Both the position numbers and the translations under genes were made by a program. Below are positions 2,521 to 63,818 of a DNA stretch of 64,000 bases, piece after piece. The notes below the pieces were generated by a model, which ran no database searches, was not told the DNA's origin, and saw nothing but the letters and a program-made list of their open reading frames with translations. Location: sequence record MT968995.1. One strand, written 5' to 3'. This DNA comes from Escherichia phage vB_EcoM_WL-3. Every line of letters begins with the position of its first letter. The first letter of the stretch is position 1.

Positions 2521-2596
2521 TGGTCGAGGCAGTAGGGATCGAACCTACGACCTAGGACTTAGAAGGTCCTTGCTCTTCCTTCTGAGCTATGCCTCG
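2521..2596 (-). tRNA. tRNA-Arg (anticodon UCU)
   Basis: Hand-folded cloverleaf: acceptor CGAGGCA/TGCCTCG, anticodon loop CTTCTAA, T-loop TTCGATC, encoded CCA. Confidence 0.8.
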
Positions 2597-2600
2597 GATT

Positions 2601-2675
2601 TGGCGGACATGATAGGATTCGAACCTATAACCAATCGCTTAACAGGCGATCGCTCTGCCATTGAGCTACACATCC
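2601..2675 (-). tRNA. tRNA-Asn (anticodon GUU)
   Basis: Acceptor GGATGTG/CATGTCC, anticodon stem ATCGC/GCGAT, loop CTGTTAA, T-loop TTCGAAT, CCA. Confidence 0.75.
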
Positions 2676-2679
2676 AAAT

Positions 2680-2766
2680 TGGTGGGGAGTGATGGAGTCG
2701 AACCACCCGAGTCGCAATGACAATGGATTTACAGTCCACACCGCTACCTCTACGGGATAACTCCCC
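2680..2766 (-). tRNA. tRNA-Tyr (anticodon GUA), type II with long variable arm
   Basis: Acceptor GGGGAGT/ACTCCCC, anticodon loop CTGTAAA, 15-nt variable arm, T-loop TTCGACT, CCA; D-arm irregular. Confidence 0.7.
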
Positions 2767-2778
2767 TAATTCTTAATT

Positions 2779-2853
2779 TGGTGGCCCTGGGTGGAATTGA
2801 ACCACCATCTGGCGATTATGAGTCGCTTGCTTGAACCTTCCAGCTACAGGGCC
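2779..2853 (-). tRNA. tRNA with CAU anticodon (Met, or Ile if C34 is modified)
   Basis: Acceptor GGCCCTG/CAGGGCC, anticodon loop CTCATAA, T-loop TTCAATT, CCA. Confidence 0.7.
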
Positions 2854-2861
2854 AAATTTTC

Positions 2862-3347
2862 TTATTTTATGTAATATTTATTTAAAAACTTTCTAGCTTG
2901 AGTATGGCTAACATTTATAGCATTTGCATAATTTTTAATAAAACCTCGTTCATCCATATTAAAACTTTCTAATATTTTTAATCGTCTAGCTATCTCATCT
3001 TGACTTAAAGTACTTGCATTATTTTTAGAAATTTTTTCTAAGGACTGTACTGAGTGTTTTCGACCATTAAAATTAAAATTTTTAGATTTTGGAGGAAATC
3101 TATCATTTAGTCTCGCATCTTTTGTATTTTGATTATTAGTTGCGCAATATATGTTATTTAATGAGTATGGTCCTTTATCACCAAAACGGCACATACAGTA
3201 TTCATGACCCTTTCTTCCACGCTTATCATAATTTCCCGTTGATTTCCACCAATGCAACCACTCATCAAAAGTTAAATTCCATTCAATGTTTCTACGTATA
3301 GCAGAATTCCGCTGAGAAATATATTTTGCATAATCTTCTTTCATCAC
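2862..3347 (-). CDS. free-standing HNH-like endonuclease candidate inside the tRNA cluster (position of T4 segB)
   Basis: 161-aa ORF; block GHEYCMCRFGDKGPYSLNNIYCATNNQN resembles phage His-Me-finger/HNH motifs; no GIY-YIG motif. Confidence 0.45.
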   Translation of the reverse strand: MMKEDYAKYISQRNSAIRRNIEWNLTFDEWLHWWKSTGNYDKRGRKGHEYCMCRFGDKGPYSLNNIYCATNNQNTKDARLNDRFPPKSKNFNFNGRKHSVQSLEKISKNNASTLSQDEIARRLKILESFNMDERGFIKNYANAINVSHTQARKFLNKYYIK

Positions 3348-3391
3348 AAATTTCTCTACTTATTACATACACTAAGCTAAATCAGCAAAAC

Positions 3392-3481
3392 TGGCGGAGG
3401 CGATAGGATTTGAACCTATGAGTCGCCGGAGCGACTGCCGGTTTTCAAGACCGGTGCATTAAACCACTCTGCCACGCCTCC
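3392..3481 (-). tRNA. tRNA-Ser (anticodon UGA), type II
   Basis: Acceptor GGAGGCG/CGCCTCC, anticodon stem CCGGT/ACCGG, loop CTTGAAA, long variable arm, T-loop TTCAAAT, CCA. Confidence 0.8.
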
Positions 3482-3483
3482 AG

Positions 3484-3557
3484 TCTCCATACAAGGATTT
3501 GAACCTTGGACCTCCTGATCCCAAATCAGGCGCTCTACCAAACTGAGCTACACGGAG
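3484..3557 (-). tRNA. tRNA-Pro (anticodon UGG), CCA not encoded
   Basis: Acceptor CTCCGTG/TATGGAG (with GU pairs), anticodon loop TTTGGGA, T-loop TTCAAAT; 2 nt from tRNA-Ser. Confidence 0.75.
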
Positions 3558-3567
3558 TAAATTAAAT

Positions 3568-3641
<74 letters not shown>

Positions 3642-3646
3642 AAATT

Positions 3647-3733
3647 TGGTGCGAGAAGTGGGACTCGAACCCACAAGGAAATCATTCCGCAGCATTTTAA
3701 GTGCTGTGCCTTTACCAATTTGGCCATTCTCGC
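3647..3733 (-). tRNA. tRNA-Leu (anticodon UAA), type II
   Basis: Acceptor GCGAGAA/TTCTCGC, anticodon stem CAGCA/TGCTG, loop CTTAAAA, long variable arm, T-loop TTCGAGT, CCA. Confidence 0.8.
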
Positions 3734-3734
3734 G

Positions 3735-3807
3735 CTGGGAATAAAGGACTCGAACCTTTGCATCCTGGAATCAAAATCCAGTGCCTTACCAACTTGGCTA
3801 ATTCCCA
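3735..3807 (-). tRNA. tRNA-Gln (anticodon UUG), CCA not encoded
   Basis: Acceptor TGGGAAT/ATTCCCA, anticodon stem CTGGA/TCCAG, loop TTTTGAT, T-loop TTCGAGT. Confidence 0.75.
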
Positions 3808-3876
3808 ATTATTAACAAAGGCTCTTAAGCAAGAACCCTTGATGATAGAGGGTATTAATCAGTGCGATATGAGTTA

Positions 3877-3901
3877 ATAATAACAAATAATTCTTAAAGC
3901 A
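3877..3901 (-). promoter_or_regulatory. T4-type middle promoter (MotA box) upstream of tRNA cluster
   Basis: Minus strand aTGCTTTAag, 12 nt, TATTAT; near-identical to element at 63484-63508. Confidence 0.5.
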
Positions 3902-3904
3902 TAT

Positions 3905-4192
3905 TTACCATTTATAATAATACATATTTACGATGCATTCAAGACCCAAAGGATTCTTGAAAATATCATATTCAAGAGGACCTTTTTCTGTTTCAATAAA
4001 GAAATCAAAATTTACTGTATTAAATTTACGTTCTTCCTTCACTAATTTAACTTGAGAAGATGAACGGTCAATGTAAACCTTTTCAACTTCAAAACATGTT
4101 AAAATGCCATAATCATCAATCAAAGCTTTAGCCGCGTCTTGATCATATTTATATCCATTTTCAATGGATGATACTTTCGCATAAAGAATCAT
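3905..4192 (-). CDS. hypothetical protein
   Basis: 95-aa ORF, ATG start, 2 nt from upstream ORF stop. Confidence 0.45.
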   Translation of the reverse strand: MILYAKVSSIENGYKYDQDAAKALIDDYGILTCFEVEKVYIDRSSSQVKLVKEERKFNTVNFDFFIETEKGPLEYDIFKNPLGLECIVNMYYYKW

Positions 4193-63117: not shown

Positions 63118-63453
63118 TCACTTATAAAGACACGGAATAGCTTTATAGTGACAAGTAACGAATTTTTGTTTAATTTCTTTTGGCTGCTTAAGACCCAGAG
63201 CTACAAAAGGATGCGGAACGTTTCGAATTTGACCAACTGGAAGAGAAGTCAAATCACCAACTTCGCAGAAACCTTCAGGAACATCAGGACCAACAGAGTG
63301 AACTACGCACAGTTCAGGAACTTCGCCTTGAACACGTTTACCGATAATAAGTCCTGATTCTGTAACTTCTTCATCACCGGCTTGTGCAGGTTCAGAAACT
63401 AAAATAACGTATTCACCGACAGCACGAATTGGTAGCTGTTGTACTTCAGACAT
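63118..63453 (-). CDS. 31: gp31 GroES-like co-chaperonin
   Basis: 111 aa as in T4. Confidence 0.85.
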
Positions 63454-63483
63454 CGTTTTTCCTTTTTGTTAACAGATGAATTA

Positions 63484-63508
63484 ATAATAACAAATAATTC
63501 TTAAAGCA
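63484..63508 (-). promoter_or_regulatory. MotA-dependent middle promoter for gene 31
   Basis: Minus strand aaTGCTTTAag, 12 nt, TATTAT, about 30 nt upstream of gp31 ATG. Confidence 0.55.
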
Positions 63509-63509
63509 T

Positions 63510-63818
63510 TTATTTACCAATAAATTGAAGTAAATGCTCAACTTTCATGCCATTAACGGAAATCAATTTGTCAATAGAAAAACCTCGCCATGCACCAAGC
63601 TCAACATCAAATACTGGAATCATATCAGTAGATTCTTTCCGAGTAGATTCAGTCAATTTACCGGTTTGCATGGTTGGCATAAAGTCTGCATCACGAGTAC
63701 CTTTCATAGTACGAATAGTACCATCAGACTTTTCAAAAACCACGTTTGAAATACCCATGGACAATTTAGTTTTCAAAATTTCACGAATTGCTACTTTTTG
63801 CTCAGTCGTCAGTTTCAT
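63510..63818 (-). CDS. hypothetical protein (position of T4 31.1)
   Basis: 102-aa ORF with ATG start. Confidence 0.5.
   Translation of the reverse strand: MKLTTEQKVAIREILKTKLSMGISNVVFEKSDGTIRTMKGTRDADFMPTMQTGKLTESTRKESTDMIPVFDVELGAWRGFSIDKLISVNGMKVEHLLQFIGK

Follow-up and report, generated by a model that had tools for sequence, protein, structure and literature searches.

Probable sequence exchange between two middle promoters 60 kb apart in Escherichia phage vB_EcoM_WL-3 and other Tequatrovirus genomes

The middle promoters of phage T4 are the closest described system to the sequences discussed here. They have a MotA box, of consensus (a/t)(a/t)(a/t)TGCTTtA, located 12 ± 1 bp from a sigma-70 -10 element. 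About half of them carry a TGn, and the -35 element is absent (PMC2988021). Two of these promoters are of particular relevance. In Table 1 of Hinton 2010 (Virol J 7:289; PMC2988021), the promoter PtRNAE (formerly PtRNAsc1) is listed with a start at 72593, citing Guild et al. 1988, and P31 with a start at 131540, citing Nivinskas et al. 1989. Both tabulated starts were checked on the T4 sequence, and each is an A located 7 nt downstream of TATTAT. Two other coordinates in that table are misprints: PnrdD+ is given as 6440 but should be 46440, and P52 as 65227 but should be 165227. With these corrections, a MotA box and a -10 are found at the expected distance for both. No global data set of T4 transcription starts was found in a literature search.

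A second described system is formed by the PeSL (promoter-early stem-loop) cassettes of T4-type phages (Arbiol et al. 2010, PMC2839356; Comeau et al. 2014, PMC4122927). These consist of an early sigma-70 promoter followed by a terminator stem-loop, are found in hyperplastic regions, in many copies, and mediate gene gain and loss.

Here, a direct repeat in a 64,000-nt stretch of the phage genome (the window) is analysed. Like the PeSLs, its two copies are repeated promoter-containing sequences in T4-type genomes that apparently act as recombination substrates. Unlike the PeSLs, they contain a middle promoter and not an early one, have no stem-loop, are found as two copies (three in T4) rather than many per genome, and occupy conserved loci. 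The outcome also differs, being an apparent homogenisation and not a shuffling of modules.

Two copies of a middle promoter

The sequence TTAATAATAACAAATAATTCTTAAAGCAT is an exact direct repeat of 29 nt, found on the plus strand of the window at 3874-3902 (copy A) and 63481-63509 (copy B), 59,607 bp apart and in direct orientation. There are no further matches in the 64,000-nt window at up to three mismatches, and the two matches were reproduced in none of 100 dinucleotide shuffles. On the minus strand, the copies align as TGGTAAAT(--/AA)ATGCTTTAAGAATTATTTGTTATTATTAA(C/T)TCAT, where the alternatives are given as copy A/copy B. The alignment can be extended to about 42–44 bp (limits in Table 1), with 41 identities, one mismatch (at position -3) and one 2-bp indel. 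On both sides the flanks of the two copies are unrelated, and the identity stops at +2/+3 and at approximately -43. The first-pass annotation had described a 30-bp string, duplicated some 60 kb apart upstream of gene 31 and of the tRNA cluster. The repeat, the spacing, the two locations and the start of the gene 31 copy at 63481 are all confirmed. The exact length is however 29 nt, and the coordinates proposed for the tRNA copy (3876-3904) are off by 2.

Table 1. Features of the two repeat copies and the genes around them. Positions are those of the window.
Feature	Position	Strand	Basis or remark
Gene 31, GroES-like head-assembly co-chaperonin	63118..63453	-	ORF, Pfam Cpn10 match, T4 annotation
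Gene 31.1, WYL_2 / SH3-like fold, ends inside repeat	63510..63818	-	ORF, Pfam, T4 annotation
Repeat copy B, P31 middle promoter, about -43 to +2	63476..63519	-	Between 31.1 stop and gene 31
P31 MotA box, AAATGCTTTA	63502..63511	-	Read from sequence
P31 spacer, AGAATTATTTGT, 12 bp, MotA box to hexamer	63490-63501	-	Read from sequence
P31 extended -10, TGT then TATTAT	63484..63492	-	Read from sequence
P31 predicted start, A	63477	-	Counterpart of T4 start 131540
trna.2, stop codon (3905-3907) inside repeat	3905..4192	-	
Repeat copy A, tRNA-cluster middle promoter	3869..3910	-	Between trna.2 stop codon and tRNA leader
tRNA promoter MotA box, ATATGCTTTA	3895..3904	-	Read from sequence
tRNA promoter extended -10, TGT then TATTAT	3877..3885	-	Read from sequence
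tRNA promoter predicted start, A	3870	-	Counterpart of T4 start 72593
tRNA cluster, nine tRNAs, predicted to be transcribed from copy A	2521..3807	-	

Each copy, read on the minus strand, has the same order of elements: a MotA box of the form (A/T)3TGCTTTA, a 12-bp spacer, the hexamer TATTAT, and an A 7 nt downstream. In both copies the spacer preceding TATTAT is AGAATTATTTGT, whose last three bases are TGT. A MotA box near -30 and a -10 of the form TAnnnT at 12 ± 1 bp are thus found in both, and a scan of the minus strand for the sigma-70 -35/-10 consensus called neither copy, as expected for promoters that have no -35 element. At P31, the upstream A/T triplet of the MotA box overlaps the TAA stop codon of 31.1 (63510-63512). 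The predicted leader of P31 is 24 nt, running from 63477 to the ATG of gene 31 at 63453, while that of the tRNA promoter is 63 nt (3808-3870), up to tRNA-Gln. No terminator was found at either copy. Folding energies for both strands of both copies were no better than those of shuffled sequences, and a search of the window against Rfam returned only the nine tRNAs, with no family at either promoter copy.

The T4 promoters PtRNAE and P31 are found at the same loci and on the same strand as copies A and B, and agree with them in MotA box, spacer length, TGn, TATTAT and start base. Copy A is identical to the T4 tRNA promoter over the whole 29-bp core. The T4 P31 has one spacer substitution (AGAACTATTTGT) with respect to copy B, so that the longest exact run shared by the T4 pair is only 16 bp, in contrast to the identical 29-bp core found here. 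Judged by these features, copies A and B are MotA/AsiA-dependent minus-strand middle promoters, orthologous to T4 PtRNAE and P31. In T4, motA (162967-163602) and asiA (160878-161150) lie outside the stretch that is syntenic with the window, and we infer the MotA dependence of copies A and B in this phage from the comparison with T4. The tabulated T4 starts match the predicted +1 at both loci. The first reading of these sequences as a MotA box plus a -10 was therefore right, and describes promoters that have already been mapped in T4. It was also suggested that a lack of MotA-dependent starts downstream of the copies would count against this reading; in T4, such starts are listed at both loci.

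In the mechanism that we propose, MotA would bind to the perfect MotA box at about -30, and AsiA-remodelled sigma-70 RNA polymerase would bind to the TGn-extended -10 (TGTTATTAT). Transcription would start at the A 7 nt downstream, with copy A driving the tRNA cluster and copy B driving gene 31. None of this would need the additional identity between the copies.

That identity was quantified by extracting the promoters of Table 1 of PMC2988021 from the T4 genome, with the two misprinted coordinates corrected, and comparing all 1596 pairs. Middle promoters of T4 normally share only their consensus elements, with a mean over all pairs of 16.6 identities out of 40 (sd 2.9) between -38 and +2. The PtRNAE/P31 pair has 34/40 (z about 6) and is the most similar of all listed T4 middle promoters, the next-best pair having 26. 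At non-consensus positions the pair matches at 16/18, against a mean of 7.0 for the listed promoters. The identity beyond consensus covers the spacer, the region from -6 to +2 and part of the upstream flank, and copies A and B likewise share spacer and start region. The initial impression that the identity exceeds what a promoter consensus requires is thus well founded.

These figures bear on the simplest alternative, namely that two strong consensus promoters in AT-rich DNA have come to look alike by chance or convergence. About 18 of the 29 bases do lie in consensus elements (MotA box, TGn, -10), and the remainder is AT-rich. Against this stand the shuffles, none of which gave a second match, the outlying position of the pair among the 1596 compared, the 16/18 matches at non-consensus positions where 7 is the mean, and the fact that the identity is kept in hundreds of genomes. 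Chance or convergence is effectively refuted by the shuffles and the promoter-pair statistics, and we regard it as scarcely credible.

The genes surrounding the two copies merit some comment. The Pfam match of 31.1 is to WYL_2, an Sm-like SH3 beta-barrel. In many deposited Tequatrovirus genomes this gene is labelled 'tail fiber protein', a name at odds with the Pfam match. The tRNA cluster has the order Gln, Leu, Gly, Pro, Ser, an intervening ORF, Met, Tyr, Asn, Arg. The set differs from that of T4, with Met, Tyr and Asn here, and Ile and Thr in T4. The ORF that splits the cluster encodes 161 residues (2862-3347, minus strand) and occupies the position of the GIY-YIG endonuclease gene segB of T4. 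Pfam gives no match for it; in the close relative OE5505, this region is listed as containing an 'HNH endonuclease'.

The leader of the tRNA transcript contains a motif, ACCCTCTAT(Y)A(Y)CAA(R)GG, that is kept across genera. It is found at 3836-3853 (minus strand) in the window and at eight other loci, is followed by a short hairpin, AAGGGTTCT...AGAGCCTTT, and corresponds to no Rfam family. In Tequatrovirus and in JS98-type genomes, there are extra bases ending in ATTAAT between +1 and this motif, which could be a remnant of an older -10 region.

Both promoters across the T4-like genera

In order to follow P31 in other phages, 26 gp31 loci were retrieved, with gp31 identities of 63–100%. P31 is found directly after the 31.1 stop codon in all 26, always with a MotA box and a -10. 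The -10 and start region is of the type TGn-TATTAT-TAAT.CAT at most of these loci, with TAATAT or TATAAT in some. The spacer varies from genus to genus, and in Mosigvirus is CGAATAGTATGG. It was also observed that 31.1 differs sharply between Tequatrovirus and the Mosigvirus/Dhakavirus group, both over the whole gene and at its C-terminal end, with the break located at P31.

The tRNA promoter (here PtRNA, for all genera) was followed in a similar way. The Trna.2 protein, taken as an anchor, gave six loci, and the 5' end of tRNA-Gln four. As these were too few, the conserved leader motif was used instead, which also drew in six unrelated contigs that were set aside. PtRNA precedes the tRNA leader in Mosigvirus, in Dhakavirus (JS98, VR5 and a 170,527-bp relative, contig 2974497520), in Winklervirus (CHI14), and in contigs of 158–160 kb that are putatively S16-like. 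Its spacer, AGA(A/G)T(T/A)ATGTG, is more conserved than that of P31, with hardly any difference between Tequatrovirus, Mosigvirus and Dhakavirus.

The two loci are occupied in every T4-like genus sampled, and both promoters are therefore ancient. Their similarity to one another within a genome varies. Over 36 nt, PtRNA and P31 share 32–34 identities in Tequatrovirus, 26 in Mosigvirus, 25–32 in Dhakavirus, 27–29 in the S16-like genomes (a putative genus assignment) and 24 in CHI14. Near-identity of the two promoters is specific to Tequatrovirus among the genera sampled. The 'recent duplication' proposed in the first-pass annotation thus requires modification: the promoters themselves are old, and it is their sequences that have recently been made alike in Tequatrovirus.

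An older duplication can also be envisaged, in which both promoters descend from one ancestral promoter and the Tequatrovirus copies have simply not diverged, with no later exchange. The two promoters do have features in common in most genera sampled, namely the MotA box and an extended -10 of the type TGnTATTATTA, and in the closer genera also AAG(A/G)A. Exceptions to the shared extended -10 are the P31 of VR5 and CHI14, which have TAATAT, and the PtRNA of two genomes, which has no TG. However, the P31 spacer evolves fast elsewhere, making it unlikely that 12 out of 12 bases would have been kept since an ancient duplication. In addition, Tequatrovirus P31 is nearer to PtRNA than to any P31 orthologue outside the genus, shares a derived T at -16 with the PtRNA of its own genus, and is part of a by-genome association (p = 0.003–0.009; described below) that is not expected under independent divergence. 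Slow divergence of an ancient duplicate is consequently, in our judgement, decidedly improbable.

A promoter found in two places might also be a PeSL-like cassette, mobile or recombinogenic, able to enter new sites and to shuffle modules. The search for further copies that had been recommended was made to examine how widely the core occurs. The core occupies exactly two places in nearly every Tequatrovirus record, and its degenerate form matches the complete T4 genome twice. A third site in T4, P32, is seen only at the level of a 20-mer, and is discussed below; in Mosigvirus SHSML-52-1, the 59-32 intergenic region has a different promoter-like sequence. No third context for the core was found in IMG/VR viral sequences (25 loci), metagenomes (14 loci) or GenBank phages. 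One apparent case, the supposedly unrelated 46.9-kb 'phage vB_EcoT_BCU-2', was rejected, as it is a partial Tequatrovirus record and the match is its own tRNA promoter.

The junctions of the promoters are suggestive of a cassette. The structure directly upstream of the tRNA promoter takes two alternative forms in Tequatrovirus genomes (3903-3925, minus strand, in the window). In one, seen in the window and in T4, trna.2 abuts the tRNA promoter (...AAATGGTAAATATGC). In the other, which resembles Mosigvirus, the MotA box contains the end of a different ORF (...AAAATGTTTAATTTGCTTTAA). The two types become homologous exactly at TGCTTTAAG, and break exactly at the MotA box. In addition, the alignment of a group of gene 31 sequences with 86% identity stops at the promoter, and promoter cassettes of the PeSL type are known in T4-type phages (PMC2839356). 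On the other hand, the confinement of the core to two fixed contexts in the viral, metagenome and GenBank phage collections implies that it is neither mobile nor multi-copy. Both loci are occupied in all genera sampled; the copies have no stem-loop or terminator, and are middle rather than early sigma-70 promoters. A mobile cassette is therefore very unlikely.

Probable sequence exchange between the tRNA and gene 31 promoters

Concerted evolution of dispersed repeats by ectopic gene conversion is a general phenomenon. The two promoters resemble such repeats in that paralogues within a genome are closer than orthologues between genera, in having sharp borders, and perhaps in having alleles common to both paralogues. 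They differ in that the tract is very short (about 30–45 bp) and regulatory rather than genic, and the evidence for it is comparative.

On this basis, we hypothesise that copies A and B are MotA/AsiA middle promoters whose excess identity probably results from homogenisation, within Tequatrovirus, of two ancient promoters by ectopic gene conversion. The promoters would have been similar already, and would have been made more so by a non-reciprocal exchange (ectopic gene conversion or a short-patch promoter replacement), for the most part by writing PtRNA-type sequence into P31. The mechanism and the direction of this exchange are inferred from sequence comparisons, as follows.

Of the 20 positions free of constraint, Tequatrovirus P31 agrees with the PtRNA of the same genome at 18, with that of Mosigvirus at 17, and with its own orthologues in other genera at only 8–15. 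The paralogues are thus closer than the orthologues (18/20 against 8–15/20), and beyond +2/+3 and approximately -43 the flanks are unrelated, giving the sharp borders by which gene conversion is also recognised. At -16, T is found in both Tequatrovirus copies and G in the PtRNA of those Mosigvirus, Dhakavirus, S16-like and CHI14 genomes that were examined; on this comparison the shared T is the derived base. A permutation test was made on seven lineages. Pairing by genome gave 89 identities in total; the permutations averaged 76.6 (sd 4.4; p = 0.003), and a value of 89 is attained by none of the derangements. With the least favourable representative of each lineage, p = 0.009. An additive model of rate variation is unable to yield such a by-genome diagonal excess.

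There are signs of the same process outside Tequatrovirus. Two sister genomes, putatively S16-like, differ at four out of five adjacent bases of the P31 spacer, and one of the two versions resembles the PtRNA of its own genome. In IMG/VR genomes 2706795408 and 2706795401, the sequence AACGCGT is common to PtRNA and P31, with an offset of 2 bp, while their sister 2706795394 has an ordinary PtRNA spacer and does not share AACGCGT. The -10 of the tRNA promoter lacks a preceding TG in the first two genomes, whose spacer there is ACAAAAACGCGT or ATAAAAACGCGT; their P31 spacer, containing AACGCGT, is AACAACGCGTGT. In JS98-type genomes, TCTATCA is found in the start region of both promoters.

The single mismatch between copies A and B, at -3, is polymorphic at both loci. 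Among GenBank phages, the base at P31 is T in 415 records and C in 36; at the PtRNA adjacent to trna.2 it is C in 365 and T in eight. Citrobacter phage PhiZZ6 (MT176424.1 / NC_054900.1; 69421-69466 and 129543-129598) has T at the tRNA promoter and C at P31, which is swapped with respect to the majority. Phage G8 has T at -3 in both promoters. The occurrence of both alleles at both loci could reflect a recurrent transition; indeed the T at -16 and the -3 alleles are single sites, and recurrent mutation could therefore account for them.

More generally, the case for conversion is drawn from short sequences: some 20 positions are informative, a single derived base is shared and a single site is polymorphic. 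The whole region upstream of gene 31, comprising the leader and 31.1, has diverged between Mosigvirus and Tequatrovirus, so that the difference between their P31 promoters is not a clean short tract. The direction of exchange appears ambiguous: the core looks as if derived from PtRNA, while the TGGTAAATA flank of the tRNA copy looks as if derived from P31, since GGT AAA TAA (Gly-Lys-stop) is the native end of 31.1. This flank is found only in the Tequatrovirus subtype in which trna.2 abuts the tRNA promoter. As regards the type of exchange, direct repeats 60 kb apart across essential genes would not survive crossing-over, so that only non-crossover exchange should be visible.

An alternative to exchange is a shared functional constraint, by which selection would keep a 20-bp module or the 29-bp core alike at both loci. 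The reader of the sequence would be an extra DNA-binding factor, or there would be a need for a certain strength or timing, for example a MotA-independent activity of the extended -10. The module comprises the spacer and -10, AGAATTATTTGTTATTATTA, with the general form AGAATTAT(T/G)TGTTATTATTA. A search of T4 for the 20-mer, allowing up to three mismatches, gives exactly three sites, all on the minus strand; about 0 are expected by chance. All three are listed middle promoters: PtRNAE, P31 and P32. The third site, at 148062-148081 (minus strand), is AGAATTATGTGTTATTATTA, which matches at 19/20 bases and belongs to P32 (start 148057), whose MotA box is shifted by 1 bp. This recurrence of the module, together with the near-invariance of the PtRNA spacer in Tequatrovirus, Mosigvirus and Dhakavirus, would also fit functional constraint.

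Several observations argue against it. P31 stays in place while its spacer changes in nearly every genus, and even from one sister genome to the next. In Mosigvirus, VR5 and CHI14, the spacers of PtRNA and P31 are clearly unlike each other. Base-specific contacts of MotA have been described only within the MotA box (PMC2988021). No structure is predicted in the element, and the P32 module is found within a mobile homing-endonuclease gene, segG, and in only 142 phage records. We therefore consider shared constraint to be unlikely. A shared additional binding site had been suggested in the first-pass annotation. The freedom of the P31 spacer to vary between genera means that there is no positive support for such a site, while the fairly conserved PtRNA spacer and the module at T4 P32 leave it some room.

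A more specific form of this idea is that PtRNA, P31 and the segG-borne P32 of T4 are a distinct sub-class of middle promoter, and that the 20-bp module is functional and has spread between loci as a unit. The module would then be read by an unrecognised factor or would give special kinetics, with a mobile homing-endonuclease gene as one of its carriers. If this were true, the co-variation of the promoters by genome would reflect selection for matched promoters, and not neutral gene conversion. We find such a sub-class distinctly doubtful, and ectopic conversion between PtRNA and P31 remains our preferred explanation.

Implications for T4-like phages

Both promoters are already known. Sigma appropriation is a well-understood process and the T4 counterparts were mapped decades ago, so that nothing is added here to the biology of T4. 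What seems to be modestly new is that, in this phage lineage, one copy has apparently been overwritten with the sequence of the other. For annotation, the promoter pair can serve as a dependable marker of middle promoters in the hundreds of deposited Tequatrovirus genomes.

The wider interest is that a pair of regulatory elements separated by 60 kb in the genome of a lytic phage appear to exchange sequence, and to do so repeatedly and in more than one genus. If confirmed, this would mean that the promoter spacers of T4-like phages are not independent neutral markers, and that ectopic conversion tracts as short as 30–45 bp operate in these highly recombinogenic genomes. The promoter pair would also offer a natural experiment, to ask whether the sequences of the spacer and the start region matter for MotA-dependent promoters.
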